Shown here one piece after another: positions 1-59,946 of a stretch of 64,000 bases of DNA. A program made the translations under genes and the position numbers. Each line of letters begins with the position of its first letter. Within the stretch, counting starts at the first letter, position 1. The notes under the pieces were generated by a model, which was not told where the DNA came from, searched no databases, and was given only the letters and a program-made list of their open reading frames with translations. Source of the stretch: Bacteroidales bacterium (GTDB taxonomy: Bacteria; Bacteroidota; Bacteroidia; Bacteroidales; WCHB1-69); contig JBGUPL010000081.1 in NCBI GenBank assembly GCA_045130275.1, positions 1,270-65,269 of the forward strand, in the 5' to 3' direction.

Positions 1-352
1 CGCCGCAGAAGATGCCGTTTTCTTTGTTGCCGAAAAAGACCATTCCGCAGAGGTGAGGAATGAGGACCGCAAGTCCCATCAACGTCATAAAACCGCCGGT
101 GAGGACGTTATCTAACAGTTTCTGTTTGATGGTTTTATGTGATTTGCTCGACACATTCAGCTTCTTCATCACTTCAGCGGGGTCAAGATCGGGGTGTTTC
201 TCCATCATTGCTATCAAAATTTCCGTTTGTTTGTCGATTTCGTGGTTTTTGCGTTTATTAATCAACCATATAACCATCAAGGGCAGCACCACGCAAATGC
301 CGATTACTACGATGATTATCATTAATACTCCTAAAACTCTTACTACATACAT
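1..352 (-). CDS. hypothetical small membrane protein (partial; 3' end lies beyond window start)
   Basis: Absent from the ORF track because it runs off the window. Reverse-strand ATG at 350-352 gives MYVVRVLGVLMIIIVVIGICVVLPLMVIWLINKRKNHEIDKQTEIL..., with two hydrophobic segments and a charged linker. It is more plausible than the antisense ORF 60..368(+). Confidence 0.55.
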   Translation of the reverse strand, partial: MYVVRVLGVLMIIIVVIGICVVLPLMVIWLINKRKNHEIDKQTEILIAMMEKHPDLDPAEVMKKLNVSSKSHKTIKQKLLDNVLTGGFMTLMGLAVLIPHLCGMVFFGNKENGIFCG

Positions 353-456
353 GACTATTAATTATTAAGGTTATACATTTCCGTTCATTACCGAATCGAT
401 TCAACCGTTAAACGGATGAAGTGGGCAAAAGGTGACATTTGAGGCGAAAAAAATTG

Positions 457-464
457 TACCTTTG
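457..464 (+). promoter_or_regulatory. Bacteroidota -7 promoter box (TACCTTTG)
   Basis: Matches TAnnTTTG, 24 nt upstream of the hypB ATG. Confidence 0.55.
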
Positions 465-487
465 CACCCGAATTGGAAATAGTGTAA

Positions 488-1150
488 ATGAACGAGGTAA
501 AGGTTATCGAAATCAAAAAAAGCGTCTTTGCAGAGAATGAGAAAGATGCTGATGCTCTTAGAGTTGAATTGAAAAACAAAGGGGTGTGTCTCCTCAATTT
601 GATGTCTGCTCCCGGCAGCGGCAAGACCACCACTCTTATCCAGCTAATTAACAGGATTAAAGACAAAATCCGTGTTTCCGTGATGGAAGCCGACATCGAC
701 AGCGATGTGGATGCGGTGAAAATCAAGGAGGCCACCGGCGTGCCGTCCATCCAGTTGCACACCGGCGGCATGTGCCACCTCGACGCGGAGATGACCCGCC
801 AAGGACTCGACAACCTCGACCTCGAAGAGACCGACCTCGTCATTCTCGAGAATGTCGGCAACCTGGTCTGCCCTGCCGAGTTCGACACCGGCGCCACCTG
901 CAACGCGATGATCCTTTCCGTGCCCGAGGGCGACGACAAACCCCTCAAGTACCCCCTCATGTTCACCGTCTGCGACCTCGTCATCATCAACAAGATGGAC
1001 GTGGTGCCCTACTTCGATTTCGACATCGAACGCTGCAAGAAGAACATCCTCATGCGCAATCCCAACGCGACTATCATCCCCGTCTCCGCCAAAACTGGCG
1101 ACGGCATGGACGCACTCGCCGAATGGTTGCGGGGAAAGCTGCGCTGTTAA
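488..1150 (+). CDS. hypB: hydrogenase nickel-incorporation GTPase HypB
   Basis: P-loop SAPGSGKTT, ENVGNLVCP and NKMD GTPase motifs. Length and overall pattern are typical of HypB. Confidence 0.9.
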   Translation: MNEVKVIEIKKSVFAENEKDADALRVELKNKGVCLLNLMSAPGSGKTTTLIQLINRIKDKIRVSVMEADIDSDVDAVKIKEATGVPSIQLHTGGMCHLDAEMTRQGLDNLDLEETDLVILENVGNLVCPAEFDTGATCNAMILSVPEGDDKPLKYPLMFTVCDLVIINKMDVVPYFDFDIERCKKNILMRNPNATIIPVSAKTGDGMDALAEWLRGKLRC

Positions 1151-1218
1151 TTACTGCGTGTTGATTATTTCATGTTGATTACTGCATGTTAGTTGGTTGA
1201 AGTTAGTTAATTGATGTT
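1148..1218. repeat. left arm of inverted repeat array (units CTGCGTGTTGATTA / TTTCATGTTGATTA)
   Basis: Starts on the hypB stop codon (TAA inside GTTAATTAC). The reverse complement of 1159-1181 matches 1733-1755 at 20 of 23 positions. Confidence 0.8.
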
Positions 1219-1653
1219 ATGAAGATTTATAACTTTGAAGATTTAGTGGTTTGGCAATTGGCAAGGGAACTTGTCAAGGATATTTATGCTCAATTTGCTA
1301 CAAGTAAAGATTATGGCTTCAACAATCAGATTCAGCGAGCAGTGATTTCCATAATGAACAACATTGCAGAGGGATTTGATAGAAGTAAAAATGCAAAAGA
1401 CAATAAACAACTTTTAAGTTACCTGAATACATCTTACGGATCTTGTGGAGAAGTGAAAAGTATGTTGTATGTGGCAGAAGATTTGGAATATATAAATGCT
1501 GAAATAGCCAAATCATTACGCGAACATTGTACTGATTTGTCCATAAAAATTGCCTCATTCATGTCTCATCTCCGCAGCTATGACAGCAACAAAAATAACA
1601 AAAACAACAGCGAAGCTAACCAACAGCCGAAGGCTAACCAACAGCGAAGCTAA
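1219..1653 (+). CDS. four-helix-bundle protein (23S rRNA intervening-sequence protein family)
   Basis: LVVWQLARELVKDIY...IMNNIAEGF...GSCGEVKSMLYVAEDL pattern is typical of this family. The gene is AT-rich compared with its flanks. The last ~25 codons (NKNNKNNSEANQQPKANQQRS) are encoded by the repeat array. Confidence 0.8.
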   Translation: MKIYNFEDLVVWQLARELVKDIYAQFATSKDYGFNNQIQRAVISIMNNIAEGFDRSKNAKDNKQLLSYLNTSYGSCGEVKSMLYVAEDLEYINAEIAKSLREHCTDLSIKIASFMSHLRSYDSNKNNKNNSEANQQPKANQQRS

Positions 1654-1848
1654 TTAACAGCCGCAGGCTAACCAACAGCGAAGCTAATCAACACGAAGTA
1701 AACAACAGCCGAAGGCTAAACAACAGCAAAGCTAACTAACATGAAATAATTAACAGCCGCAGGCTAACCAACAGCGAAGCTAATCAACACGAAGTAAAAA
1801 ACAGCCGCAGGCTCACCAACACGAAGTAATAAACACGAAGTAATAACC
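1585..1848. repeat. right arm of inverted array (units TAACCAACAGCGAAGC, TAACCAACAGCCGAAGGC, TAATCAACACGAAG, TAACTAACATGAAA)
   Basis: Tandem degenerate units of 14-18 bp. Contains an exact 52-bp internal duplication (1651-1702 = 1747-1798). Ends in TAACCGTT immediately before the ATG at 1852. Confidence 0.85.
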
Positions 1849-1851
1849 GTT

Positions 1852-4671
1852 ATGCCTGAAATGTCCACCAAATTTGTCCCGAAACACAAAGGGGACAAGA
1901 ACCCGAACCCCAAGCTTCTCAAGCTGGTTCGTCACATCACCGATCGTATCCCCGGTAAAATCAAGATGGATACCGACGCCCCTGAGTATTGGGGTCTCGC
2001 CTGCATCTTCGAGGACGAGATGGATGCCGTCACCCGTGAGGCCGCTCTGGATCTGATGCTGGATATGCTGCCCGGCAATCCTTTCCGGGTGCGCAAACAT
2101 TGGACCAATGCGCAAATCCACGAGCTGAACAGCCAAAAACATTACACTCCTGACGACAAGTCTTTCGACGAACTTCTGGACCTGATGGCCCGCATGGGAG
2201 TCATGGAGTATGACTATGGCGACAAATACACCAAAGACGGGCCCGTTCCCGGATCTACCTACGAAAGGAAAGACCGCGTGTATTGGGTGCCCATGTTCGT
2301 CCCTGGCAGTGCCGAATACACCAATATGAACGAGGAACTCATGAAGAAACACCCGGAACTGGGCATGTTCTTCGAACGTATGACCTTCCTGCCGTTAGAG
2401 AAGGTCACTCCGATGGTGCCTATGGGCGGTTCCGGTATCGGCATGCACGTGATTCCGGTGGAGAAAGCCATCTCCATGGAGAATCAATCCATTGATATAG
2501 AGCATATTTCATATTGGCTTAAACGCTACGAAGGCCACCTGGCGGTGGGCATCTGCTCCTGCCGTATTGGTCGCAAAGGACTGGATGAAGGCTGCGCCGA
2601 CGATTACCACGATTGGTGTATCGGCGTGGGCGATATGGCGGAGTATCTAGCGGAGACGGGCCGAGGTCACTTCATCACCTACGATGAGTGCATGGCTATC
2701 TTGAAAAAAGCAGAGGATCATGGTTTTGTACACCAAATCACCAATATCGACGGCGAAGGCAAAATCTTCGCCATCTGTAACTGCAACGTCAAGATCTGCA
2801 ATGCGTTGCGTACTTCACAACTCTTTAATACCCCCAACATGAGCCGTAGTGCTTACGTGGCGAAGGTGGATCCGACGAACTGCGTGGCTTGCGGACGTTG
2901 CGTGGAATACTGTCCTGCGGGAGCTGTACGTCTGGGACAGAAACTCTGCACCAAACACGGCGAGCAGACCTACCCGAAACAGGAGCTGCCCGATGCCAAG
3001 AAGTGGGGACCGGAGAAGTGGGACGAGGACTACCGCGACAAGAACCGCATCAACTGCTACCCGACCGGTACGGCACCTTGTAAAACGGCCTGTCCGGCGC
3101 ATATCGCGGTGCAAGGCTATCTGAAGAAAGCGGCCGAAGGCAAATATACGGAGGCGTTGGAACTCATCAAGCGCGAGAACCCGTTCCCGGCGGTCTGCGG
3201 GCGTGTCTGCAACCGTCGCTGCGAGGATGCCTGCACGCGCGGCACCATCGACCAGCCCATCGCCATCGATGCGGTGAAGAAGTTCATTGCAGAGCAGGAT
3301 CTCAAAGCGGAGACCCGCTTCATTCCTGAGGTGAACATTTGTTCCAACGTGAAAGAATTTTGGGATGAGAAGATTGCCATCATCGGCGGCGGCCCTGCCG
3401 GTCTGAGCTGCGCCTACTACCTCGCCACGATGGGCTACAAGCCCACCGTCTTCGAGAAAGACGAGATCCCCGGCGGTATGCTGCAATACGGCATCCCCTC
3501 TTACAAGTTAGACAAAGAAGTCATCAAAGCCGAAATCGACATCATGCGCGAAATCGGTGTGGAGATCCGCACTGGCGTGGAAGTCGGCAAAGACATTACC
3601 ATACAGCAACTTAGAGATCAAGGATACAAGGGCTTTTATGTGGCCATCGGTTGCCAGGGCGGCAAATTGCCCGGCATCACCGGTGAGAATCTGCCCGGAA
3701 CCACCACGGCCATTGATTTCCTGCACAACTGCAATTGCGGCACGAAGGTCAGCGGCAAGGTCGTCGTGGTCGGCGGCGGCAACGTGGCCATCGATGCGGC
3801 GCGGGTCGCCAAGCGCGGCGGTGCCGAGTCCGTCACCATGCTCTCGTTGGAGACCGAAGACATCATGCCCGCCTCCTTGGAGGAGCGCCGCGAGGCCCGC
3901 GAGGACGGCGTGGTCATCAACCCCGGCTGGGGCCCGAAAGAGGTGCTCGGTACCGACAAAGTCACCGGCATCGTCTTCAAGAAATGCACCTCCGTGTATG
4001 ACAAAGACCACCGTTTTTCTCCGCAATATGATGAGGAAGAAACGATTACGCTGGATGCCGACTTGGTCATCTTCGCCATCGGTCAGACGGTCATCCTCAA
4101 GGATCTGCTCAAGGACACGAAAGTGGAGTTCGTGCGCGGCGTCTATCCCGTGGCCGACAAACTGACCTACCAGACCGCCGAAAAGGACATCTTCGTGGGC
4201 GGTGACTGCTTCACCGGTCCGAAGTTCGCCATTGATGCTATCGCCGCCGGCAAGGAGGGCGCCGAATCGTTGCACCGCTACGTACAGCACGGTCACCTCA
4301 CCATAGGTCGCAACCGCCGCGACTTCATCGAGCTCGACAAGGACGACATCGTGGTGGAGAGCTACGACAATTCATCCCGCCAAGTGGAGGGCGTGTCCGA
4401 GCAGGCCGACAAGTTCAAGGAATACACGCTCACGCTTACGGAGGAGCAGGTGCGCACCGAGACATCCCGCTGTCTGAGCTGCGGCGCGTCCGTAGTGGAC
4501 GAAAACCGCTGCATCGGCTGCGGCATCTGCACCACCAAGTGCGCCTTCGACGCCATCCACCTCTTCCGCGACAACCCTGACGCCAGCATCATGCGCACCT
4601 CCGAGGACAAGTTCAGCGGCATTCTGCCGTACATGCTCAAACGAGCCGCGAAGATCGTCTTTAAGAAGTAA
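1852..4671 (+). CDS. multidomain Fe-S / FAD-NAD(P) oxidoreductase (GltD-like core, two ferredoxin-type modules, Cys-rich N-terminal domain)
   Basis: IAIIGGGPAGLSCAYYL dinucleotide fold. GltD-like CPAHIAVQGY...CGRVCNRRCEDAC motif. CxxCxxCxxxCP motifs at CVACGRCVEYCP and CIGCGICTTKC. The N-terminal ~330 aa carry CSCRIG...AICNCNVKIC and belong to no family I recognise. Confidence 0.75.
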   Translation: MPEMSTKFVPKHKGDKNPNPKLLKLVRHITDRIPGKIKMDTDAPEYWGLACIFEDEMDAVTREAALDLMLDMLPGNPFRVRKHWTNAQIHELNSQKHYTPDDKSFDELLDLMARMGVMEYDYGDKYTKDGPVPGSTYERKDRVYWVPMFVPGSAEYTNMNEELMKKHPELGMFFERMTFLPLEKVTPMVPMGGSGIGMHVIPVEKAISMENQSIDIEHISYWLKRYEGHLAVGICSCRIGRKGLDEGCADDYHDWCIGVGDMAEYLAETGRGHFITYDECMAILKKAEDHGFVHQITNIDGEGKIFAICNCNVKICNALRTSQLFNTPNMSRSAYVAKVDPTNCVACGRCVEYCPAGAVRLGQKLCTKHGEQTYPKQELPDAKKWGPEKWDEDYRDKNRINCYPTGTAPCKTACPAHIAVQGYLKKAAEGKYTEALELIKRENPFPAVCGRVCNRRCEDACTRGTIDQPIAIDAVKKFIAEQDLKAETRFIPEVNICSNVKEFWDEKIAIIGGGPAGLSCAYYLATMGYKPTVFEKDEIPGGMLQYGIPSYKLDKEVIKAEIDIMREIGVEIRTGVEVGKDITIQQLRDQGYKGFYVAIGCQGGKLPGITGENLPGTTTAIDFLHNCNCGTKVSGKVVVVGGGNVAIDAARVAKRGGAESVTMLSLETEDIMPASLEERREAREDGVVINPGWGPKEVLGTDKVTGIVFKKCTSVYDKDHRFSPQYDEEETITLDADLVIFAIGQTVILKDLLKDTKVEFVRGVYPVADKLTYQTAEKDIFVGGDCFTGPKFAIDAIAAGKEGAESLHRYVQHGHLTIGRNRRDFIELDKDDIVVESYDNSSRQVEGVSEQADKFKEYTLTLTEEQVRTETSRCLSCGASVVDENRCIGCGICTTKCAFDAIHLFRDNPDASIMRTSEDKFSGILPYMLKRAAKIVFKK

Positions 4672-4678
4672 ATGTCGG

Positions 4679-4873
4679 TGACTGCGTGTTGATTACTACG
4701 TGTTGATTACTGCGTGTTGATTACTGCGTGTTAATTACTGCGTGTTAATTATTGCGTGTTACCAACAGCGAAGCTAACCAACAGCCGAAGGCTAACCAAC
4801 ATGAAATAACTAACACGAAGTAACCAACAGCCGAAGGCTCATCAACAGCCGCTGGCTCACAAACACGAAGTAA
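4679..4873. repeat. ORF-less inverted array: left arm (CTGCGTGTTGATTA)n joined directly to a right arm of TAACCAACA-hairpin units
   Basis: The arm junction is at 4760/4761 (TGCGTGTT|ACCAACAGCGAAGCTAA). The units are reverse complements of one another. Confidence 0.85.
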
Positions 4874-4875
4874 AT

Positions 4876-5223
4876 ATGCACGAATTGGGTATCGTCTTTT
4901 ACATCATCCGGGACGTCAAGAAGGTGGCGGAGGAGAACCACGTGGAGCGGGTCTCCGAAGTGGTTATGGACATCGGGGAAGTCTCCACGGTGGTACCTCA
5001 CCTTCTCACCGACTGCTGGCGCTGGGCCGCCGACAAAGAGGAGCTGCTGAAGGGTTGCGAGCTGAAATGCAACATTATCCCGGCTGTCACCTGGTGCGAC
5101 GACTGCAAACAGGAGTACGAGACGGTGAAACACGGAAAGACGTGCCCCCACTGCCACAGCGAGAATACCTGGTTGCTGCGCGGCAACGAAGTCGAGATTC
5201 GAGAGATAGTAGTTAGTAGTTAG
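4876..5223 (+). CDS. hypA: hydrogenase nickel-insertion protein HypA
   Basis: N-terminal MHELGI and the zinc site CDDC...CPHC. The 115-aa length is typical. Confidence 0.88.
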   Translation: MHELGIVFYIIRDVKKVAEENHVERVSEVVMDIGEVSTVVPHLLTDCWRWAADKEELLKGCELKCNIIPAVTWCDDCKQEYETVKHGKTCPHCHSENTWLLRGNEVEIREIVVSS

Positions 5224-5229
5224 TAGTTA
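5209..5229. repeat. heptad array (GTAGTTA)x3 across the hypA stop codon
   Basis: Three exact 7-bp units. The TAG stop at 5221-5223 lies inside the array. Confidence 0.8.
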
Positions 5230-5263
5230 TGAACGGAAAAATCACATATATTTGAAAAAAGAA

Positions 5264-5420
5264 TTCCTTGAGCAGCCTCGAAGAGGCAAGACGCACGAAG
5301 TGCAAGTAACCCCACACAAGCGACGGAGGAGCGTAGTGTGGGGTTAAGGAAACCCAGAGGCAACACGCACGAAGTGCAATTAACCCTACACAAGGTGAAG
5401 CCGCAGTGTGGGGGGCATGG
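5264..5420. repeat. TTCCTTGAGCAG half-element followed by two tandem ~74-bp hairpin-rich units
   Basis: GCCTC-GAA-GAGGC hairpin, then units starting at 5285 and 5359. Each unit has GCAC-GAA-GTGC plus an 8-bp stem (CCCCACAC...GTGTGGGG and CCCTACAC...GTGTGGGG). Confidence 0.75.
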
Positions 5421-5431
5421 AGAAAAAAATG

Positions 5432-5439
5432 TATCTTTG
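5432..5439 (+). promoter_or_regulatory. -7 promoter box TATCTTTG
   Basis: Consensus TAnnTTTG, 19 nt upstream of the ATG at 5458. Confidence 0.6.
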
Positions 5440-5457
5440 CACACGAAAGTCGAAACA

Positions 5458-6213
5458 ATGTATAAACGTATCCTCATATCAGCCATCGCAGCACTCTGCT
5501 GCCTTGCAACCTTGCCTTGCGCGGCTCAAGTTACCATAAAGTTCAAATCGCTGAAGATCAGTAACGTCACGGATAAAATATGGGAACCCGAGAAGGATCT
5601 CTTTTGTGCGTTCAGACTTCCATCCTATGATCGTGGAGACGTTTATCTCCGTATTGAAGCGGAAATCGTAAACGAGGGTGACACGGCGGTGCCCATTCCC
5701 AGCTTTGATCGCGAAAAGATGATGTTGGTGTATCACAATCCCAACCCTAGAGACAACTCTCTTGCAAACAGCATGGTTAAAAGCAGGTTAGGGGCGATAG
5801 TAAGAGTTTGTGGCATCCTTGAACCCAACTTCCCGCCACATTCGTGCAGGTACAACGATTACTGGGATTTGATCAATGTCAATAGGTTTGACGGTATGCG
5901 CCCGCTGTATTATGTCTCTGCCGCCATACCCACCATGCGTCTCTGCATGGAGGTCCCCGGCCAAGGACTGGTCTATTCCGACGCACCCGAGGAAATCATC
6001 GTCAATGGCCGGAAAATCGACCCCGACTGGCGGAACTTCGACTACTCCGACAACGCCTACCTGCTCGTGAACAACGAACTGATGCGGGAGTTCATGCTCG
6101 AAAACCCGCACCTCTTCGGCAGCACCTTCTCCGAAGACCTGCTAATGAAAGAATTTGTCAGCAATATGGCCTTCACCTACCACTGCTTCCCCATCACCAA
6201 CCCAAACAACTAA
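5458..6213 (+). CDS. secreted hypothetical protein
   Basis: Start moved to the ATG at 5458 (MYKRILISAIAALCCLATLPCAAQ signal peptide), downstream of the promoter box. The stop TAA is the first triplet of a TAACAGCGAAGC repeat unit. Confidence 0.65.
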   Translation: MYKRILISAIAALCCLATLPCAAQVTIKFKSLKISNVTDKIWEPEKDLFCAFRLPSYDRGDVYLRIEAEIVNEGDTAVPIPSFDREKMMLVYHNPNPRDNSLANSMVKSRLGAIVRVCGILEPNFPPHSCRYNDYWDLINVNRFDGMRPLYYVSAAIPTMRLCMEVPGQGLVYSDAPEEIIVNGRKIDPDWRNFDYSDNAYLLVNNELMREFMLENPHLFGSTFSEDLLMKEFVSNMAFTYHCFPITNPNN

Positions 6214-6290
6214 CAGCGAAGCTAACTAACATGAAATAACCAACACGAAGTAATCAACAGCCGAAGGCTAAAAAACACGAAGTAACAAAC
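6211..6290. repeat. right-arm-type unit array (no left arm)
   Basis: TAACAGCGAAGC TAACTAACATGAAA TAACCAACACGAAG TAATCAACAGCCGAAGGC ... Confidence 0.8.
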
Positions 6291-6305
6291 AAAAAAACAA
6301 CGAAT

Positions 6306-6641
6306 ATGTCATGCTTTATCATCCCCATGGCGCAGGCCATCGCCACAAGCGCCTACAGAAAAGCCAACGCGAAAGCGATTGAAAGTTCAGAACACGCACT
6401 CACGCGCAATATCCCGGCGTTAGAGAAGATGCTCTGGGGCGGCACCGTGATGCTCATCGTCGATCACGTCATCAACGGCGAACTCACCTGGCAGTACCCC
6501 TTCTTCACCGCCCTGGAGTCCGGCGGCTTCCCTGTCATGCTCCGCGAACTCCTCACCGTCGGCGTACCCATGTCGCTGGTCCTCACCGCCGTATGGGCTG
6601 TTTGGAGCATTGCCAAAGCCCGCAAAGTCACTGCGTGTTGA
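6306..6641 (+). CDS. small membrane protein, unknown function
   Basis: 111 aa with hydrophobic segments (GGTVMLIVDHVI and VPMSLVLTAVWAVWSI). The stop TGA lies inside the first left-arm repeat unit. Confidence 0.55.
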   Translation: MSCFIIPMAQAIATSAYRKANAKAIESSEHALTRNIPALEKMLWGGTVMLIVDHVINGELTWQYPFFTALESGGFPVMLRELLTVGVPMSLVLTAVWAVWSIAKARKVTAC

Positions 6642-6775
6642 TTACTACGTGTTGATTACTGCGTGTTGATTACTGCGTGTTACCAACAGCGAAGCTAATC
6701 AACATGAAATAACTAACAGCCGAAGGCTAACCAACAGCGAAGCTAACCAACATGAAATAACTAACTTAAATTTTA
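6629..6775. repeat. second ORF-less inverted array
   Basis: Left arm is (CTGCGTGTTGATTA)x3-4 and right arm is TAAYYAACA-hairpin units. It shares the identical 25-nt junction TGCGTGTTACCAACAGCGAAGCTAA with 4753-4777. Confidence 0.85.
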
Positions 6776-6781
6776 ACCGTT

Positions 6782-7873
6782 ATGTTTTTCCAAGTTTATG
6801 GGGCTAACGCCCTGGCCCAGTGGGGGATGTTGCTCGTTGTCCTCGTGGGTCTCATCCTGTTCAACGAGTTCGCCCGTCGCACCAAAGCCGGCGGCATCAT
6901 CACATTTTTCGTCATCCCCGTCATCCTGACGGTCTATTTCGTGGCCATCGCCATCGGAGCCCGCTCCGGAGCTGAATGGGCGGTCAACAACCAGACGCAC
7001 GTCTATATGAACGGCTGGTTCCACTACGCCAAGCTCTACGCCGCGCTCACCGGTTGTATCGGCTTCATGATGATCAAGTACAAATGGGGCATCGGCGCCA
7101 AACACTGGTTCAAACCGTTCCCGTTCATCATCGTGGCCATCAACATCCTCATTGCCGTGGCTTCCGACTTCGAATCCGCCTTTATGGGCTGGAACAAGTG
7201 GTGGCTCTCCAGCGAGGGTGTGTGGCTCTACGGCGGCTGGCACAACGTTATGAACGGCGTCGCCGGTCTGCTCAACATCCTCTGTATGACCGCTTGGTGG
7301 AACGTCTTCCCGTCCAAGGATAAGAAAGACATGATCTGGGCCGACATGACCTGGGTCTTCATCGTGGTCTATGACATCTGGAACTTCGCCTACACCTACA
7401 ACTGCTTGCCCACGCACAGCTGGTTCTGCGGTATCGCGTTGTTGCTTGCCCCGACGATTGCAGCTATTTGCTGGAACCGCGGAGGTTGGATCATGAACCG
7501 CGCCAACACGCTGGCTATCTGGTGCATGTTCGCGCAGGTGTTCCCGCTCTTCCAAGAGACCTTCAAAGACGGTTTCCAGGCCTTCAAGTGGGCTGTGCTT
7601 CCCGTGCAGTATCCCAACGGCATCGAGACCATCACGGAGATTTACGCTGCTGCCGGCGGTGAAGCTGCCGCTGTGGGCACCACCGTTGAGACCGTGGCCG
7701 GCAATCCGACCATGATGACGGTGATCAGCGCCTTGGCTCTCATCACCAACGCTGTCGCCCTGTGCTACATCATCGCCCAGGCCAAGAAGCGTCACATCAA
7801 CCCGTACAAGGAAGATGTCTTCATCAACCAGAAGTACTACAAAGATGCTATGGAGCGCGCCGATCTGGCATAA
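6782..7873 (+). CDS. polytopic Trp-rich integral membrane protein, unknown function
   Basis: 363 aa with about 9 hydrophobic helices. Preceded by the same TAACCGTTATG context as the gene at 1852. Confidence 0.7.
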   Translation: MFFQVYGANALAQWGMLLVVLVGLILFNEFARRTKAGGIITFFVIPVILTVYFVAIAIGARSGAEWAVNNQTHVYMNGWFHYAKLYAALTGCIGFMMIKYKWGIGAKHWFKPFPFIIVAINILIAVASDFESAFMGWNKWWLSSEGVWLYGGWHNVMNGVAGLLNILCMTAWWNVFPSKDKKDMIWADMTWVFIVVYDIWNFAYTYNCLPTHSWFCGIALLLAPTIAAICWNRGGWIMNRANTLAIWCMFAQVFPLFQETFKDGFQAFKWAVLPVQYPNGIETITEIYAAAGGEAAAVGTTVETVAGNPTMMTVISALALITNAVALCYIIAQAKKRHINPYKEDVFINQKYYKDAMERADLA

Positions 7874-7892
7874 TCCAAACACGAATGCTATG

Positions 7893-7928
7893 AAAAAGGT
7901 CGCAGGAAAAAAACCTGCGACCTTTTTT
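7893..7928. terminator. bidirectional intrinsic terminator
   Basis: AAAAAGGTCGCAGG-AAAAAAA-CCTGCGACCTTTTTT, located between convergent genes. Confidence 0.8.
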
Positions 7929-7950
7929 GGTTCAATAATTTCGGTAAATT

Positions 7951-9129
7951 TTACAGCGCGGCAAACGGTGCCACCGCCCGGTCGAAGATGCCGTTGACGT
8001 AGGCGAGGACCATGCCGTAGTTGCTGACCGGGATGCCTGCTTCGATGGCCGGGCGCAACCGTTCCTTCAACTGCTTGCGGGTGACCATGCAGCCACCGCA
8101 CTGGATAACCATCGCATATTGCTGGATGTCAGGGATTTGGTTGAGGCCCGACACGAAATCGAACTGCAGCTCTTTGCCCGTGAACTTGCGGATAAGACGC
8201 GGCAGCTTCACCCGCCCGATATCCTCGCAAGAGGTGAGGTGCGTGCAGGATTCCAACATCAGGATGCGGTCGCCGTCGCTAAGGTCGCGCAACTTCGGGG
8301 TCCCTTCAAGGTAAGCTCCGAACTCGCCCTTCTGGTGCGCCAATACCACGCTGAAGCCCGTCAGCGGGATGCTTTCGGGCACGGACTTCTCCACCTTGTG
8401 GAATGCCTGGCTGTCGGTGACAACCAATTTCGGGGCGCGGTGGTTTTGCAGGTAGGCCGCCACCTTGTCCTCTTTCAGCACGATGGCAACCGCCTCATTG
8501 TCAAGAATATCGCGGATGGTCTGCACTTGCGGGAGGATGAGCCGACCTTCGGGGGCTTCCGTGTCAATGGGAGTCACCAAGAGCACTTCATCGCCCTCGC
8601 CGATGAGGTCGCCGAGCAGCGAACGGGTACGGTACGCCGATTCGGGCATAATCCGCACGATTTCTTGCAGCATTTCGTCTATGCCGGAATGCGTTTTTGT
8701 ACTGACATTCAAGACTTTGCGATCATCAACATCCATCTCTCGAGGAGCGGTCAGGTCGCATTTGTTGTTGACGATGAGGTAGGGAAGTTCGAATTGGTGG
8801 AACTGTTCTATCAGCTGTCGTTCGGGGATGCCGACTTCATAATCGGTAATCACAAGGATGGCTAAATCGATGGTTTTCAACACTTCCAGTGATTTTTGGA
8901 TGCGTTTCGCCCCGACGGTGCCTTCGTCGTCGATTCCGGCGGTGTCGATGATGATGCAGGGCCCGATGCCGAAAATCTCGATGGATTTGCGCACGGGGTC
9001 GGTGGTGGTGCCGGCCGTGGCGTCCACGATGGCGACCTCCTGTCCCGTGATGGCGTTAATAAGGGAACTCTTGCCGTTGTTCCTCCGCCCAAAAATGCCG
9101 ATGTGCGGCTTGTCGTTACGTCCTTTCAT
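7951..9129 (-). CDS. hydF: [FeFe]-hydrogenase H-cluster maturation GTPase HydF
   Basis: N-terminal GTPase motifs GRRNNGKSSLINAITG, DTAG and NKCD. C-terminal cluster ligands CTH...QCGGC. Confidence 0.85.
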   Translation of the reverse strand: MKGRNDKPHIGIFGRRNNGKSSLINAITGQEVAIVDATAGTTTDPVRKSIEIFGIGPCIIIDTAGIDDEGTVGAKRIQKSLEVLKTIDLAILVITDYEVGIPERQLIEQFHQFELPYLIVNNKCDLTAPREMDVDDRKVLNVSTKTHSGIDEMLQEIVRIMPESAYRTRSLLGDLIGEGDEVLLVTPIDTEAPEGRLILPQVQTIRDILDNEAVAIVLKEDKVAAYLQNHRAPKLVVTDSQAFHKVEKSVPESIPLTGFSVVLAHQKGEFGAYLEGTPKLRDLSDGDRILMLESCTHLTSCEDIGRVKLPRLIRKFTGKELQFDFVSGLNQIPDIQQYAMVIQCGGCMVTRKQLKERLRPAIEAGIPVSNYGMVLAYVNGIFDRAVAPFAAL

Positions 9130-9132
9130 ACA

Positions 9133-10917
9133 CTAACTTATCGTTTTCGCAATCTTCTCGATATTCAAACTCCTTGCCGAGGCATCGATAATATCCTTGT
9201 AGATGCCGCCCTTCTTGTAGATTTCGTCGGGGTCGCCGTCTTCCTCCACGCGACCGTCCTTGAGGGCGTAGATGTAGTCGGCGTCGATGATCTGCGAGAT
9301 GCTGTGGGAGATGATGATGACGGTGCGGTCCTGCTTGATGGCGTCGATGCTGTTCTTGATCTGCTCGGTGGCGATGGCGTCCAAACTGGCGGTGGGCTCG
9401 TCCAAGAAGATGATGGGCGGGTTCTTGAGGAACATGCGGGCGATGGCCACGCGCTGCTGCTGCCCGCCAGAGAGGTCGGCAGCGTTGTGCGCGAATTGCT
9501 TCGGCAGCTCCATGACCTGGTCGTACAGGTGCGCCTTCTTCGCGGCCTCCACCACCTCCTCGTGCGTGGCCTCCGGGTTGCCGTAGAGGATGTTCTCCTC
9601 AATGGTGCCGTCGAAAATATGGTTCTTCTGCAAAACCAACCCGATGTTCTCGCGCAGGTAATGCGTGTCGTAGTCCTTCAAATCGACCCCGTCCAACGTG
9701 ATGGTGCCCACCTGCGGCTCGTAGAACTTGTCCAACAGGTTGACGATCGTGCTCTTGCCCGCGCCCGACAGTCCGACCAACGCCGTGATCTTGCCCGGTT
9801 CAATCTTCATGTTAACACCGAACAACGCTTGCGTGCCGTTCGGGTAGGTGAAATCGACGCCCTTCAGCTCGAAGTTGCCGTGAATGGGCTCCGGCTTGTA
9901 CTCGCCCGACGGCTCGACCTCCTTCTCGGAGTTGAGGATGCCGAAGAAGCCCTCGGCGTAGATCAGCGCGTCGTTCACGTCGTCGAAGATGCGCTGCAGC
10001 TGCGTAATGGGCGCGATGACGTTGCTGAACAACATCACGTGGTACATGATTTTACCGATGGTCATGCCGGGGTATTCGATGAGCACCAAGTAGGCGGTGA
10101 GGATGATGACCAGCACGGTACCCACCTGCCGCACGAAGCTCTTGAGTCCGTTGTAGTAGAAGGCCACCTTGCGGGTTTTCATCTGGTTCTCCGTCACTTG
10201 GTTCTGGATGTCGAGCTGTTTTTGCCCCTCAATCTGCTCGCGGTTGAAACTTTTGATGACGTTGATGGAGTCGATGATATTCTTGATACCCTGACTTTTA
10301 GTCTCCAAATGGCTACGCATCTCGCGCCGCCAACCCTTTAGCCGCCGTGCCTGCCGATAGGTAATCCAGAAATAGACCGGCACGATGCCGAGGGCGACCA
10401 AGCCGACATAGACGTTGGCCGCGAACATCAGGATAAGGGCGAGCAAGGCGCTGGTGAACAACGGCAACAGGTCGATGAAGAAGTTCTGCACCGTGCGCGA
10501 CAACGAGCTGACACCCTGGTCGATACGCGCCTGCAGCTTGCCGGTGGCGTTGTCGCCCGAGTTGAAGAAGGCCATCTTGAAGGTGAGCACCTTCTCGATA
10601 ACGCTCTGCGCCAAGTCTCGGCTCACGTAAATCCGCATCCGCTCGCCGAAGTAGTTCTGCGCGAAGGTGACCAATGCGGAGAGCAACTCCTTGCCTAACA
10701 GCACGATGGAGATAATGGTCATAATCCGTGCCGCCTGGCCCCACTGGAAGTTGGTGCCGATGAGCGCGTTGATGGCATCCACCGTCCGGTCGAGCACGAT
10801 GGCGTTGACCTGCGCCATCAAGGACCCGACCAACGTGAGGATTAAGGTGATGAGTACCAGCCATTTGTAAGGTTTCACAAACGGACGGAGGTTTTTGAAG
10901 AGTTGGAGGAGGTTCAT
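9133..10917 (-). CDS. ABC transporter, fused permease/ATPase (MsbA-like exporter)
   Basis: Six-TM N-terminal half, Walker A GLSGAGKST, signature LSGGQQQRVAIAR and Walker B IIFLDEPTASLD. Confidence 0.9.
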   Translation of the reverse strand: MNLLQLFKNLRPFVKPYKWLVLITLILTLVGSLMAQVNAIVLDRTVDAINALIGTNFQWGQAARIMTIISIVLLGKELLSALVTFAQNYFGERMRIYVSRDLAQSVIEKVLTFKMAFFNSGDNATGKLQARIDQGVSSLSRTVQNFFIDLLPLFTSALLALILMFAANVYVGLVALGIVPVYFWITYRQARRLKGWRREMRSHLETKSQGIKNIIDSINVIKSFNREQIEGQKQLDIQNQVTENQMKTRKVAFYYNGLKSFVRQVGTVLVIILTAYLVLIEYPGMTIGKIMYHVMLFSNVIAPITQLQRIFDDVNDALIYAEGFFGILNSEKEVEPSGEYKPEPIHGNFELKGVDFTYPNGTQALFGVNMKIEPGKITALVGLSGAGKSTIVNLLDKFYEPQVGTITLDGVDLKDYDTHYLRENIGLVLQKNHIFDGTIEENILYGNPEATHEEVVEAAKKAHLYDQVMELPKQFAHNAADLSGGQQQRVAIARMFLKNPPIIFLDEPTASLDAIATEQIKNSIDAIKQDRTVIIISHSISQIIDADYIYALKDGRVEEDGDPDEIYKKGGIYKDIIDASARSLNIEKIAKTIS

Positions 10918-10924
10918 TGGGAAT

Positions 10925-10952
10925 GGTTATGGGTTAGGGGTTATAGGTTATT
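10925..10952. repeat. heptad array, GGTTAKR flavour, ending GGTTATTGAAGC
   Basis: GGTTATG GGTTAGG GGTTATA GGTTATT. The same GGTTATTGAAGC end occurs at 59911-59922. Confidence 0.7.
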
Positions 10953-11053
10953 GAAGCTTTAGAGAGAGATTCATTATCTTTTTTTTGAGTTTTAGGCCGC
11001 AAAAGTACAAAATTATTTATCTAAAAACGGAATTGATTTTTTTGAAAAAAACG

Positions 11054-11061
11054 TATTTTTG
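11054..11061 (+). promoter_or_regulatory. -7 promoter box TATTTTTG
   Basis: 22 nt upstream of the hicB ATG. Confidence 0.55.
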
Positions 11062-11082
11062 CCCCGTCATTAATAAACATAT

Positions 11083-11298
11083 ATGGAATATACTGTTATA
11101 TTGGAAAAAATGGACAATGGTCAATGGTTCTGTCAATGTGAACAGGTACCAGAGGCAGTAACCCAAGGAGCCACCATTGAAGAGGCAAAAGAGAACATCA
11201 AAGATGCCATAGAGATGGTTCTGGCCGCCAAAAAAGAACTTACCAGAAAACAATTTATCGGACGTCGCATATTACGACGCAAAATAGCTATTCTTTAA
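11083..11298 (+). CDS. hicB: HicB-family antitoxin
   Basis: YTVILEKMDNGQWFCQCEQVPEAVTQGATIEEAKENIKDAIEM is a typical HicB N-terminal fold pattern. Its TAATG junction overlaps hicA. Confidence 0.8.
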   Translation: MEYTVILEKMDNGQWFCQCEQVPEAVTQGATIEEAKENIKDAIEMVLAAKKELTRKQFIGRRILRRKIAIL

Positions 11299-11486
11299 TG
11301 AAACGAACAGCCTTAATCAAATACTTATTGGAAAACAATTGCATCCTTTTCAAAGAAGGAAGTAATCATTCTGTATATATTAATAAAAATGGAAAAGGGT
11401 TATCTGCCGTTCCTCGCCATTCTGAATTAGGAGACCGCTTAGCAGTGGAAATCTGTAAGCAGCTGGGTATTCCAAAAATTAAATGA
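11298..11486 (+). CDS. hicA: HicA-family mRNA interferase toxin
   Basis: 62 aa with KEGSNHSVY...VPRHSELGDRLAVEICKQLGIP, the HicA signature. Confidence 0.8.
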   Translation: MKRTALIKYLLENNCILFKEGSNHSVYINKNGKGLSAVPRHSELGDRLAVEICKQLGIPKIK

Positions 11487-11980
11487 ATACTTTTAAAATG
11501 TGCAGACCTAAAATATTACTGATACTCTTTACACTTTGTCTTACCGCATCCTGCACAAGAGTTCGGAATAAAGTGGTGGATTTGTTGAGGACAAGTTCCA
11601 ATTTCGAAGAATACCATGTCAGGCAACTTTATCCTTCCTTGGGTCAAGATGACGATTGCGGGGTTTGCGAAGAATGGCCGCTCTACAATATGTGGTTTCG
11701 GTATCAAGGCACACCGGCGCAAGTGGAGTCTGCCATTATCGCCAAAGAATGTACCTACACAGAAATCACGCCTGACTCCGCATTTATCAGCTGTGATCGA
11801 AATTATATTTTGGAAAAACAGAGCCCTCATCAGAGAATCGACTTTTTTGACGAATGGGAAACCCTACCGGAGGATCATCTGCTATACTATCACTGCTGCA
11901 GGACGCCGCATCATCACTTTTTCGTGTTTGATACGGTTACCGGTTACGTGTATCATCACATAGTCGAATTTCGGGAATAA
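11483..11980 (+). CDS. Cys/His-rich lipoprotein, unknown function
   Basis: Lipobox LTASC. ATGA overlap with the hicA stop. Contains DDDCGVCEEW and HCCRTPHHH. The gene is AT-rich. Confidence 0.6.
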   Translation: MNTFKMCRPKILLILFTLCLTASCTRVRNKVVDLLRTSSNFEEYHVRQLYPSLGQDDDCGVCEEWPLYNMWFRYQGTPAQVESAIIAKECTYTEITPDSAFISCDRNYILEKQSPHQRIDFFDEWETLPEDHLLYYHCCRTPHHHFFVFDTVTGYVYHHIVEFRE

Positions 11981-11984
11981 AATT

Positions 11985-12190
11985 TCCCCGCACACCTAAC
12001 GGCGTGCGGAACTCATCGTGGCCGCCCATCCCTACTACCAAGCCCGGCAGACCTAACGGCCTGCCCGTGCCTGTTTTATAACTAATATGGGGAAATGCTA
12101 CGTTCGCGAACCAGCCCGTTAGGGCTGAAAGGCTCGGTAGCAAATGGGGTGTCTCGCGCGAGATTTTCGCAGGCCGTTAGGCCTGCGGGC
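11985..12190. repeat. two inverted copies of a ~90-bp two-hairpin REP-like element
   Basis: Hairpins at 11988-12009, 12046-12065, 12112-12127 and 12168-12187, all with GTTA/TAAC loops. Conserved linker YTCGGTAG. Confidence 0.8.
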
Positions 12191-13460
12191 AAACCGTTCC
12201 GAACAAATCATATTCCGCGGCGTCCGTGATTTCCACGTTGTAGAATTCGCCGACGGTGAGCGGTTGGGATTTGTCGATGAAGACGTCGTTATCGACATCG
12301 GGGGAGTCGAATTCCGTGCGGCCGATGTAGCAGTCGGGTTCCTCGCTGTCGATGAGCACCTTCATCGTGGTGCCGACGCGGGTCTGGTTGATCTCGTAGG
12401 AGATTTTCTCCTGCAGCTTCATGATCTCGTTCACCCGTTTGTTCTTTTCGGAGGCCTTGATGGGGTCGCCGAGGTCGAAGGCGGGCGTGTCTTCCTCTTG
12501 CGAGTAGGCGAAAACGCCAAGTCGCTCGAAACGGTTGCGGCGCACGAACTCCACCAGCTCCTTGTGCTGCTCGCGGGTCTCAGTCGGGTAGCCGGAGATG
12601 AGCGTGGTGCGCAGCGCGATGCCGGGAATGGTCTCGCGGATGCGGGCGATGAGGTCGTAGATGTAGGCCGAGCTGCCGCCGCGCCGCATGCTCTGCAGGA
12701 TGTCGTCGCTCACGTGCTGGAACGGAATGTCCAAATAACGGCAGTATTGCGGGTACTGCTTCATCACCTCTAAAATCTCGTAGGGGAAGTTCAGCGGGTA
12801 GGCGTAGTGCAGCCGAATCCACTGGATACCATTCACTTGCGCGAGTTTATCCATCAGGTCGGCGAGTTCGCGCTTGCCGCTGCGGTCGATGCCGTAGTAG
12901 GTGAGGTCCTGGGCAATCAACATCAGCTCCTTAACCCCTTGGTCGGCAAGACGTTGCGCTTCATCTACCAAAAGCGGGATCGGTTTGGAGACCTGCTTGT
13001 CGCGGATGAGCGGGATGGAGCAGTAGGAGCACTGGTGGTCGCAGCCCTCGGAAATCTTGAGGTAGGCATAGTGACGCGGGGTCGAGAGCATACGGTCCGC
13101 CGTGTTGAGCAGCTGGAAATCGGGGGATTCCAACAGCTTCGGCAGTTCCGCGAAGGTGAAAAAGCCATCCACCTCGGGCAGCGCCTCCTGCAGTTCCGCC
13201 ATGTTGCGTTGGACGAGGCATCCCACCACGTACAACTTCTTGATTTGGCGGCGTTTCTTGCGTTCAATTTGGTTCAGAATTTCGTTCACGGATTCTTCCC
13301 GCGCATCGTGGATGAAGCTGCATGTGTTGATGATCACGATGTCAGACTTCTGCGCGCTTTCGTAATAGAGCTCATGGCCGTTGCGGTGCAGTTGCGCAGC
13401 CATAACTTCCGAATCCACAATGTTTTTGGAACAACCTAAGGTGATGATATTGATGGTCAT
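12177..13460 (-). CDS. rimO: ribosomal protein S12 methylthiotransferase RimO
   Basis: MTTase N-domain (LGCSKN, NTCSF), radical-SAM CDHQCSYC and a C-terminal TRAM domain. Start set at MTINIITLGC (13460), downstream of the promoter box. Confidence 0.9.
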   Translation of the reverse strand: MTINIITLGCSKNIVDSEVMAAQLHRNGHELYYESAQKSDIVIINTCSFIHDAREESVNEILNQIERKKRRQIKKLYVVGCLVQRNMAELQEALPEVDGFFTFAELPKLLESPDFQLLNTADRMLSTPRHYAYLKISEGCDHQCSYCSIPLIRDKQVSKPIPLLVDEAQRLADQGVKELMLIAQDLTYYGIDRSGKRELADLMDKLAQVNGIQWIRLHYAYPLNFPYEILEVMKQYPQYCRYLDIPFQHVSDDILQSMRRGGSSAYIYDLIARIRETIPGIALRTTLISGYPTETREQHKELVEFVRRNRFERLGVFAYSQEEDTPAFDLGDPIKASEKNKRVNEIMKLQEKISYEINQTRVGTTMKVLIDSEEPDCYIGRTEFDSPDVDNDVFIDKSQPLTVGEFYNVEITDAAEYDLFGTVCPQA

Positions 13461-24330: not shown

Positions 24331-24409
24331 TTGGCTGTTGGCTTTTAGCTATTGGCTTTAAGTATGAATCACTTGCCAACAGCCAATAGCCAACAGCTAA
24401 TAGCCAAAA
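24331..24409. repeat. inverted heptad arms (TTGGCTGTTGGCTTTTAGCTATTGGC ... GCCAACAGCCAATAGCCAACAGCTAATAGCC)
   Basis: Left arm 24331-24356 and right arm 24375-24409 are reverse complements in 7-nt register. The loop is about 18 nt. Confidence 0.8.
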
Positions 24410-33171: not shown

Positions 33172-34182
33172 ATGCTGTTGCTGGCAGCACTGACTTTTTT
33201 TTTTAAGATAACTTTCGCCCAAGATTATCACTTTTCCCAATTTTATGCTAACCCGACAGGTGTGAATCCCGCATTGACGGCAGCTTTCGATGGCGTGGTG
33301 CGTGGTTCTGTCATTATGCGCTCACAATGGCTGGCGGTTTCCAAGCCGTTTATGACGATGGGCGCAGAGGTCGATGGCGCGGTCTATAAGAACCATCGAC
33401 GGCAGGAATTGTTGGGCCTCGGGCTCACGTTCAACGGCGACAAGGCCGGCGATGTGAATTATCGTTCCGTGCAGGCGGTGTTGTCAATGTCGTACATCAA
33501 AAACATTGGCCGCCACAGCCGTCACAAACTCGGACTGGGACTATACGGGGGCATCATCAATAACCATTTTGATGTGGATCCCAGTACATGGGATATGCAG
33601 TTCGTGGATGGTGTTTTCTATCCCTATCTTCCTAGTGGTGAGAATTTTGAGACAATCCAACGACTGTACGCGGATTTCGGCGCGGGAGCGTTTTGGAGCT
33701 TTTTGCCCACCAAGACGGTGCTCTTGCGGGCTGCAGTCAGTGCCTCGCATATCAACCGACCATTCTATGGCTTCGGGGAGAGCAATGCGCGGCTGCCCGT
33801 GAAGTACACCGCCCATTTCTATTCGCAGATTGCTCTTAGTCGCGAAATCTCTTTGTCTCCAATGTTTTACGCTTCCTGGCAACGTTCGCTCAGCGAGTAT
33901 TTGTTCGGATGTAATGTGGAATATTTCAACAAGAAAAACAGCTATACCACGCTTTATACGTTAGGCGGCGGACTCCTTTACCGATGGAATGATGCGCTGA
34001 TTTTCAATGGATTTGTGAGTTGGCAGAATCTCCGCTTCTCCATCGCATACGATGTCAATGTGTCGCCGTTTGTGGTGGCTACGCACGGGCGCGGCGGTCT
34101 GGAAATCGCCGTGTCTTACATTTTCAAGAAGAGGACTATTACGAGGATTGGGAAGGAACCGTGTCCGTATGACATTATGTAA
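33172..34182 (+). CDS. PorP/SprF-family type IX secretion membrane protein (in frame with rarA)
   Basis: Internal ATG at 33172 opens a signal peptide MLLLAALTFFFKITFAQ, followed by the family N-terminal motif DYHFSQFYANPTGVNPALTA. Confidence 0.75.
   Translation: MLLLAALTFFFKITFAQDYHFSQFYANPTGVNPALTAAFDGVVRGSVIMRSQWLAVSKPFMTMGAEVDGAVYKNHRRQELLGLGLTFNGDKAGDVNYRSVQAVLSMSYIKNIGRHSRHKLGLGLYGGIINNHFDVDPSTWDMQFVDGVFYPYLPSGENFETIQRLYADFGAGAFWSFLPTKTVLLRAAVSASHINRPFYGFGESNARLPVKYTAHFYSQIALSREISLSPMFYASWQRSLSEYLFGCNVEYFNKKNSYTTLYTLGGGLLYRWNDALIFNGFVSWQNLRFSIAYDVNVSPFVVATHGRGGLEIAVSYIFKKRTITRIGKEPCPYDIM
33195..33204 (+). repeat. T10 homopolymer in the PorP-like signal peptide codons
   Basis: ACT TTT TTT TTT AAG. 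Either +1 or -1 slippage creates an immediate TAA stop. Confidence 0.9.
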
Positions 34183-34279
34183 TGGTTAATGGTTAAAGGT
34201 TAAAGGTTAATGGTTAAAGGTTAATGGTTAAGGGTTAAGGGTTAAGGGTTAGTGTTTAAGGGTTAATGGTTAAGGGTTA
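34183..34279. repeat. heptad array (GGTTAAW / GGTTAAG)x~13
   Basis: Begins immediately after the TAA stop. Each unit carries TTAA, which places TAA on both strands. Confidence 0.9.
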
Positions 34280-39333: not shown

Positions 39334-39373
39334 GACTTAGACTTAAACTTAAACTTAGACTTAAACTTAAACC
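39334..39373. repeat. hexamer array (ACTTAG ACTTAA ACTTAA)x2
   Basis: 6-bp units with an 18-bp super-period in the pyrB-pyrI spacer. Confidence 0.8.
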
Positions 39374-39414
39374 AGTGACCATTGACTATATTCCATTCCA
39401 ACAAACACACAATT

Positions 39415-39434
39415 CACTGATCACTGATCACTGA
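39415..39434. repeat. heptad array (CACTGAT)x3
   Basis: Located directly after the pyrB stop. Confidence 0.75.
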
Positions 39435-59851: not shown

Positions 59852-59858
59852 TTTTTAA

Positions 59859-59922: not shown

Positions 59923-59946
59923 GAAGCCTGATTGCTTTTCTCTTTT

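Follow-up and report, generated by a model that had tools for sequence, protein, structure and literature searches.

Tandem arrays of palindromic cores matching the DNA mini-hairpin rule build the arms of an intervening-sequence-like foldback in uncultured Bacteroidales

The DNA heptamers d(GCGAAGC) and d(GCGNAGC), described by Hirao and colleagues, form mini-hairpins with a G-N-A triloop and a 5'-C/G-3' closing pair (PMC13037366, PMC3201870). Among triloops, solely G-N-A gives such DNA mini-hairpins; as N goes from A through G and C to T, the melting temperature (Tm) of GCGNAGC falls from 76 to 70 °C (PMC13037366), and stability depends strongly on the C-G closing pair (PMC13037366, PMC3201870). 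The RNA counterparts are far weaker (Tm of 39 °C for r(GCGAAAGC)), and nearest-neighbour energy models miss the stability of GNA mini-hairpins (PMC13037366). Whereas the known natural mini-hairpins are single and lie at phage or plasmid priming sites or in a phage promoter, we describe here tandem arrays of cores with the same loop and closing pair, up to ~20 units long, in chromosomal operon spacers of an uncultured Bacteroidales bacterium. The stretch analysed, called the window below, comprises 64,000 nt of contig JBGUPL010000081.1 (assembly GCA_045130275.1), where a first-pass annotation, made from the letters and their open reading frames (ORFs), had pointed to strings of GCGAAGC-type motifs in repeat units.

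Two further kinds of described element resemble these arrays in their layout. ORF-bearing intervening sequences (IVS) of 23S rRNA, as in Coxiella burnetii and Leptospira, hold a PF05635 gene in the loop of a long inverted-repeat stem, have short tandem repeats in their arms whose number varies between strains, and have been proposed to be selfish or mobile (PMC4990558). The window contains a cassette with a gene of the same PF05635 family in the loop and the same kind of variable tandem repeats in the arms. It differs from the IVS in lying in an operon mRNA spacer between protein genes rather than in 23S rRNA, in having arm units of 14–18 nt that contain a palindrome, where the IVS have a plain heptamer, and in that many copies are gene-less or single-armed; for the IVS, cleavage by RNase III is known. 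Heptamer arrays of GGGNATC in Xanthomonas and Nostoc (PMC4692102) and of TAACTGA in Beggiatoaceae, Cyanobacteria and Bacteroidetes (PMC4679880) are likewise found between aligned ORFs in variable copy number, with G-rich sequence following the stop codon and C-rich sequence preceding the start codon, as in the present arrays. In one of these cases the repeats form a quadruplex, whereas the structure proposed here is a mini-hairpin. In addition, the present unit is not 7 nt but two heptads, of which one became a hairpin palindrome, and it has grown to 16 and 18 nt.

The motifs in the window are the cores of a sub-repeat of a lineage-restricted, dispersed intergenic repeat, which builds the arms of an IVS-like foldback. 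Each unit consists of an 8-nt header (TAAYYAAC) and a palindromic core with a 3-base centre, for a total of 14, 16 or 18 nt. This is the composition that the first-pass annotation had proposed for the right arm of the cargo-bearing cassette (1601–1848), in which the cores are the AGC-GAA-GCT, AGCC-GAA-GGCT, AGCC-GCA-GGCT and AC-GAA-GT of that annotation and, in addition, AT-GAA-AT and one AGC-AAA-GCT. Tandem Repeats Finder reports periods of 14, 34, 48 and 96 for this arm; overall, the unit repeats every 14, 16 or 18 nt, and 34, 48 and 96 are higher-order periods. All of the motifs listed in the first-pass annotation are present. GCGAAGC occurs, always on the + strand, at 1610, 1644, 1678, 1774, 4768, 6216, 6689 and 6737 (the last corrected from 6736), and GCCGAAGGC occurs at 1626, 1708, 4784, 4830, 6260 and 6719, with an unrelated extra copy at 3133 within an oxidoreductase gene. 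The arms and the cargo gene are listed in Table 1.

Table 1. Coordinates of the repeat arms and of the cargo gene in the window.
Feature	Coordinates	Strand	Details
Left arm, cargo-bearing cassette, hypB-to-oxidoreductase spacer	1136..1218	-	cores AGCGCAGCT, ACGCAGT, ATGAAAT, ATGCAGT
PF05635 (23S rRNA intervening-sequence protein, four-helix-bundle) gene	1219..1653	+	Pfam E 1.6e-28
Right arm, cargo-bearing cassette	1601..1848	+	~16 head-to-tail units of 14, 16 or 18 nt
Left arm, cargo-less foldback, between oxidoreductase gene and hypA	4672..4760	-	six 14-nt units, cores ACGCAGT or ACGTAGT
Right arm, cargo-less foldback before hypA	4759..4875	+	seven units, one being the AGCC-GCT-GGCT exception
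Right arm without left arm, between 251-aa gene and 111-aa gene	6196..6305	+	five units, then A-rich tail
Left arm, second cargo-less foldback	6629..6681	-	first unit provides the 111-aa gene with its final four codons and TGA stop
Right arm, second cargo-less foldback	6680..6781	+	ends at TAACCGTT, before ATG at 6782

For the core statistics, we parsed 1021 units from 174 non-identical arrays of this genome and of relatives' loci; as the latter were collected with the pattern ACGAAGT, the ACGAAGT class is inflated. Perfect palindromes around a 3-nt centre account for 922/1021 cores (90%), while 69 have one mismatch and 20 are irregular. The loops of the 922 palindromic cores are GAA (738), GCA (112), AAA (32), GTA (27), GGA (1) and others (12), such that 878 (95%) carry the G-N-A loop of the mini-hairpins. 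Loop position 1 is G (rarely A), position 3 is nearly always A, and the middle base varies, with a preference (A >> C > T) that broadly follows the published order of mini-hairpin stability. The closing pair is C-G in 836 of the 922 (91%) and T-A in 86 (9%), and never G-C or A-T. Overall, these statistics match the published DNA mini-hairpin rule of a GNA loop and a 5'-C/G-3' closing pair.

The stems fall into 16 types, all of them complementary. Counted by arrays, the abundant ones are AC/GT (126), AGC/GCT (74), AGCC/GGCT (69) and AT/AT (53), and the rare ones include AGCCC/GGGCT, AGGC/GCCT, ACCGC/GCGGT, ATCGC/GCGAT and GTGC/GCAC. The double change from C..G to T..A is found in 53 arrays, compared with at most 9 for either single-step intermediate, and one-sided stem variants are mostly singletons. 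Stems have also grown by symmetric, two-sided insertions, which give cores of 7, 9, 11 and 13 nt and lengthen the unit from 14 to 16 and 18 nt; 15- or 17-nt units make up ~2%, and stem length ranges from 2 to 6 bp around the constant 3-nt centre. Because the 16 stems are complementary, one-sided variants are rare and the loop varies at its middle base, sequence comparison supports the view that the palindromes reflect more than descent from one founder unit, and the hairpins look real and conserved. The description of the units as strings of hairpin-type palindromes in the first-pass annotation is thereby borne out.

The exceptionally stable GCGAAGC type of core, to which it also pointed, makes up a part of the units. 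The exact GCGAAGC or CCGAAGG core type, as in the DNA mini-hairpins, is found in ~45% of units, and these are the AGC/GCT and AGCC/GGCT units, which have two or more G-C stem pairs. Such pairs are absent from the AC/GT and AT/AT units (~52%), whose 2-bp stems lie outside those with measured stability. These include the commonest unit of all, AC-GAA-GT, which, like AT-GAA-AT, is predicted not to fold.

We also followed the suggested check of comparing genome-wide counts of GCGAAGC-type motifs with expectation. Exact GCGAAGC is at expectation in the whole window (11 observed, 10.8 expected) and is not enriched genome-wide, where 44 of its 495 copies (both strands, 3.19 Mb) lie in arrays. Within a single dispersed repeat family, however, it is concentrated ~30-fold. 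In the window, GCCGAAGGC is enriched (8 observed versus 0.67 expected, with 0/100 shuffles reaching 8), and heptamers that fit the rule (N-C-GNA-G-N') occur at ~25 per kb per strand in arrays compared with 0.8–1.1 per kb elsewhere. Three sets of control motifs, in which the closing pair was wrong or the loop reversed, scored 0 in arrays. The enrichment is real but local to one repeat family.

Using rough gene calls made in this analysis, we found that arrays are nearly always located between co-directional genes. Where two arrays abut, reverse-complement units are 5' and forward units 3' in 47 cases and the opposite order occurs in none, and GTTAAC is contained in 28/38 paired arrays, often as the centre. 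Single-orientation arrays between co-directional genes are sense in 50 cases and antisense in 11, and 8 of these 11 have a sense partner at most 3 kb downstream, being left arms parted from their right arm by cargo. A foldback therefore reads, in order, stop codon, reverse-complement units, centre or cargo, forward units, ~20 nt (median gap 21.5 nt) and next start codon. On the sense strand, left arms are T/G-rich and right arms are A/C-rich with TAA stops in all frames. For example, the arm at 1601–1848 (A 46%, C 27%, G 17%, T 10%) contains TAA stops in all three frames and ends 3 nt upstream of the ATG at 1852. In nearly every element the two arms differ in unit-length class, one having 14-nt units and the other 16/18-nt units (0/2000 permutations reach the observed difference), so the element is never a perfect palindrome; arm lengths can be very unequal as well, up to 19 versus 5 units. 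As the polarity is strict, G-N-A loops are carried by the 3' arm on either DNA strand. The positional and strand bias that the first-pass annotation had put forward as a check is strong relative to transcription, so the outcome that it had named as refuting was not obtained. In this fragmented assembly, local GC skew is no predictor of gene orientation (49.5% agreement) and gives no assignment of leading and lagging strands. Some forward arms have no matching left arm and sit in chimeric spacers (C21:13580-13760, C29:89300-89360 and C95:34375-34420), where an unrelated GAATTAA/GAATTAT heptamer array stands directly after the upstream stop and before the forward arm.

Several arms in the window reach into the neighbouring genes. 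The final codons and TAA stop of hypB (1148–1150) are inside the first unit of its adjoining arm, and the TAA stop of the 251-aa gene is within the first header of the single right arm that follows. The outermost unit of the left arm at 4672–4760 overlaps GAAGTAAAT at the stop codon, and a second GAAGTAAAT at the end of the corresponding right arm abuts the hypA ATG. Repeat units thus encode the C-terminal codons and stops of hypB (1136–1150), the 111-aa gene (6629–6641) and the 251-aa gene (6196–6213), and the tails of these three proteins diverge among species exactly where the arrays start.

The conserved part of the PF05635 gene, which is bracketed by the arms at 1136–1218 and 1601–1848, stops near 1590, and its final 20 codons and stop come from right-arm units. 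In this genome, every one of the five PF05635 genes sits between inverted short-repeat arrays, and the units of the five are different and unrelated. The other four (C85:84300-85100, C121:92800-93600, C133:39400-40150 and C110:32000-32750) are surrounded by the 7-nt units TTAAAGG, AGGCAAC, CAGTGAA and GCCAACA.

Comparison with relatives showed that the spacer occupied by the cassette varies among species. Orthologues of the window PF05635 gene, 73–98% identical and with arms of the same family, are found in three different operon spacers: the one between hypB and the oxidoreductase gene, in this genome and in three more; the one from the oxidoreductase gene to hypA, in one species; and the one from the 111-aa gene to a DUF5692 gene, in three species. 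The window has gene-less foldbacks (4672–4875 and 6629–6781) in the last two of these spacers. Two species have an empty spacer before hypA (AAGAAGTAAATATG; AAGAAGTAAATATGCAC); elsewhere in the genus it holds arrays of differing lengths (three species), the gene-bearing cassette (one species), or REP-like elements or an unrelated heptamer array. The insert before hypA has GAAGTRAAT at both ends, and the variable base matches between the copies in two species (TAA versus TGA); no clear duplication was seen at the other site. The single right arm at 6196–6305 is the remnant of a foldback; species without the 251-aa gene have both arms after hypA and the same terminal sequence before the 111-aa gene. 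The 251-aa gene itself (5458–6213) encodes a secreted protein with no Pfam match and has its own Bacteroidota-type promoter motif (~5436–5450). It is absent from several sister species, where the foldback array directly follows hypA, and it looks like cargo inserted at the foldback centre.

Unit number differs between near relatives, and changes mainly by gain or loss of whole units. In metagenome contig Ga0310691_10000248 (L181), the foldback before hypA has three left-arm units compared with six here, and an identical right arm. Its positions 2662–2818 have 0 substitutions over 157 bases relative to 4719–4875 of the window, with even the rule-breaking GCT loop kept, although the flanking genes are only 94.8% and 92.0% identical. 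Among the other comparisons, one orthologous single arm is about as conserved as its better-conserved flank and another arm has turned over. Taken together, the conservation comparisons are mixed and do not separate selection from recent exchange.

As an explanation, we favour, with about even confidence, that the cores fold in single-stranded DNA (ssDNA) and that the arrays maintain themselves as parts of a cassette that moves or recombines, and are not a host device. The first-pass annotation had left open whether the arrays act as ssDNA or as RNA. The ssDNA level is favoured over mRNA because adherence to the rule on loop and closing pair is as high in units running against transcription as in sense units (91% of 259 versus 87% of 492), and because this rule is the DNA rule and variants compatible with G.U pairing are not in excess (one-sided T.G and C.A variants are equally rare, 8 versus 6, which is no signature of RNA wobble). 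These arguments are indirect and amount to a lean and not a proof, and the role in replication or recombination that had been suggested for ssDNA hairpins is putative.

Under this explanation, the arm DNA would become single-stranded during replication, transcription or repair, and each core would then snap into a compact C-GNA-G mini-hairpin on the unit strand, with the 8-nt headers staying as linkers. The oligonucleotides d(CAACACGAAGTAAC), d(CAACAGCGAAGCTAAC) and d(CAACAGCCGAAGGCTAAC) would be expected to fold under physiological conditions, and to do so better than their complements. Misalignment phased in whole units would lead to expansion and contraction, and one-sidedly damaged cores would be corrected or replaced, which would keep the stems complementary. 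The headers may let arms of 14-nt units pair with arms of 16/18-nt units without a perfect long palindrome. The arrays would be tolerated considering that the forward arm gives the mRNA an A/C-rich, stop-rich and nearly unstructured leader close to the next start codon, and their orientation and position would be limited by what the operon mRNA tolerates. Mini-hairpins resist 3' exonucleases and exclude single-stranded-DNA-binding protein (SSB). A bolder version, which we consider improbable, is that the arms are the working ends of an ssDNA intermediate that copies IVS-like four-helix-bundle cassettes and their gene-less derivatives between operon spacers. It is suggested by the strict polarity, which puts G-N-A mini-hairpins on the 3' arm of either strand, and a host hairpin-processing enzyme (a Y1/HUH nuclease or a primase) might act on the arms of such an intermediate.

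A number of observations weigh against folding in ssDNA as part of a mobile cassette. In nearest-neighbour models for DNA, the 14-nt units (about half of all) score 0 kcal/mol and those of 16 and 18 nt no better than -0.5 to -2.3 kcal/mol; across the nearest-neighbour models used, units other than the 14-nt ones range from -0.4 to -3.7 kcal/mol. Extraordinary stability has been documented solely for cores with two G-C pairs (PMC13037366, PMC3201870). As duplication multiplies units, the unit counts are not counts of independent events and overstate their number. The equal keeping of the rule in both arms could stem from exchange of sequence between the arms. The GAAGTRAAT at the ends of the insert before hypA overlaps the unit's own GAAGTAA, and may be microhomology rather than a target duplication. 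The 100% identical array between flanks of 92–95% identity could reflect sequence constraint or recent exchange, of which selection would be the unfavourable case. No transposase was found in or next to any array, and no enzyme that would move the cassette was identified. Finally, constraints acting on the RNA are indicated by the marked excess of sense orientation and by the constant spacing to start codons.

This last point leads to the main rival, that the arrays act in operon mRNA, as a leader, as a platform for a binding protein (S1, Csp or the four-helix-bundle protein), as a stem cut by RNase III, or in coupling of stop and start. In detail, the arms would pair as a long imperfect stem as in the 23S rRNA IVS, with the mini-hairpins as recognition or barrier elements in the RNA. 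We consider this possible but on the whole unlikely: placement and the precedent of the IVS speak for it, the core statistics do not. Nearly all arrays lie between co-directional genes, the sense excess of single arrays is effectively 50 to 3 once separated left arms are set aside, and arms end a median of 21.5 nt before the next start. RNase III cleaves the stems of the Coxiella IVS, which are based on heptamer repeats (PMC4990558), TAACTGA arrays before start codons have been proposed as sites of a translational regulator (PMC4679880), and GGGNATC arrays are placed alike and are transcribed (PMC4692102). In the modelled 721-nt cassette RNA, the left arm is predicted to pair with the distal right arm around the ORF in both the minimum free energy and the centroid structure (z = -3.8). 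On the other hand, the cargo-less foldback RNAs fold only weakly better than shuffles (z = -1.4 and -2.5), and a single arm of 113 nt is essentially unstructured as RNA, no better than shuffles (z = -0.07, -4.2 kcal/mol). For the cores, predicted RNA stabilities lie between 0 and -3.7 kcal/mol, and the idea of nuclease barriers in RNA, raised in the first-pass annotation, finds no support in such weak hairpins. The very unequal arm lengths also fit an mRNA stem poorly, as does the lack of an excess of G.U-compatible variants. The G-N-A rule is kept equally in left arms, whose mRNA bears the complement. Lastly, arrays are present in 27 genomes of the genus and the window PF05635 orthologue in 8 of these, so it is not a required partner encoded in cis.

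The remaining explanations fit the data poorly. The palindromes could have neither structure nor function, having been present in a few founder units that were multiplied by replication slippage and unequal recombination into neutral spacer filler. Four unit types do account for 88% of units, whole-unit gain and loss is the dominant change, the genome is full of other 7-nt arrays without an internal palindrome, and the exceptional AGCC-GCT-GGCT unit was kept unchanged in a relative. We nevertheless find this account improbable, considering the 16 distinct complementary stems, their symmetric growth with few one-sided lengths, the excess of the C..G to T..A double change over either intermediate, the restriction of loop variation to the middle base, and a polarity of 47 to 0. 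Even less probable, in our judgement, is that the cores are duplex-DNA sites for a dimeric protein or that the arms are terminal repeats read as duplex by a transposase. While the cores are palindromic, inverted arms bracket the cargo and a 9-nt direct repeat flanks one insert, stems of 2 to 6 bp shift the half-sites apart and are ill-suited to a fixed dimer, and the five PF05635 cassettes of the genome have unrelated arm sequences. The absence of transposases from the arrays and their surroundings speaks against the second form, as do the six Y1 genes of the genome, whose flanks hold repeats of other families.

If the cores do fold in the way that their sequence implies, this would be the first case of GNA mini-hairpins arrayed in tandem in nature; the motif is, to our knowledge, otherwise known from single phage or plasmid origin sites and from biotechnology. 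One genus displays empty sites, gene-less foldbacks, single arms and the same cassette in three spacers of one operon; such evidence of movement was previously lacking for the short-repeat hairpins around PF05635 genes and for 23S rRNA intervening sequences. Should the arms indeed be the ends of an ssDNA intermediate, this would provide the first mechanistic handle on the widespread heptamer-hairpin cassettes. The arrays also matter for the annotation of rumen and gut Bacteroidales, as they break assemblies and rewrite the last codons and stops of neighbouring genes.

Repetitive extragenic palindromes and bacterial interspersed mosaic elements (REP/BIME) with their Y1 transposases (RAYT) offer a further comparison. 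Like the arrays, they are extragenic hairpin repeats in transcription units, clustered in alternating orientation, and they act as ssDNA hairpins, as is proposed for the arrays. The arrays differ from them in having no GTAG with a 20–40-nt imperfect hairpin and no adjoining Y1 gene, and in being tandem rather than single or paired. Y1 (PF01797) genes are present in 46/55 species of the genus, and the nine species without them also lack arrays. However, Y1 genes occur in 19 species that have no arrays, and in the window genome arrays flank none of the six copies, next to which other, REP-like hairpin families are found. On these two grounds we rejected a Y1 transposase as the specific partner, and regard it only as a distant prospect. 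The C-GAA-G theme that the first-pass annotation had noted at 5270–5376 is present (GCCTCGAAGAGGC at 5275, GCACGAAGTGC at 5293 and 5367), with C-GNA-G loops, but belongs to a different family. It is part of an element (GCCTC-GAA-GAGGC / GCAC-GAA-GTGC, 5264–5420) downstream of hypA, which is REP-like and separate from the arrays, and this family flanks a Y1 (PF01797, RAYT-like) gene elsewhere, on contig C54 (C54:16557-17841). REP-like elements replace the mini-hairpin arrays in sister species' spacers before hypA and before the DUF5692 gene, and the REP-like hairpins of this genome also have C-GNA-G loops.

The window genome (3.19 Mb, 134 contigs, 50.6% G+C) contains ~180 units at ~20 loci. Contigs end inside long arrays (C102 end, C103 start and C54 start), so that the assembly is broken there and copy numbers are probably underestimated. 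The repeat family was found in 26/54 other species of the genus and in 7/10 species of a second one. Among 20 further genera of the family, two had just single hits, in 3 species, and 18 had no hit; a control with the reversed pattern yielded 0–1 hit per genome. A scan of all prokaryotes with one genome per species returned almost only uncultured rumen and gut assemblies of Bacteroidales or Paludibacteraceae. A search of window positions 1–12500 against Rfam gave no family at E <= 1 (with two chance-level hits elsewhere), and we found no description of such mini-hairpin arrays in the literature. CRISPR was set aside, as there are no unique spacers between units. Other spacers of the window contain plain heptamer arrays without internal palindromes (24331–24407, 34180–34279, 39335–39434, 46926–46972, 51547–51621, 52402–52440, 57765–57831 and 59855–59976), of which those at 24331–24407 and 57765–57831 are inverted pairs without cargo.

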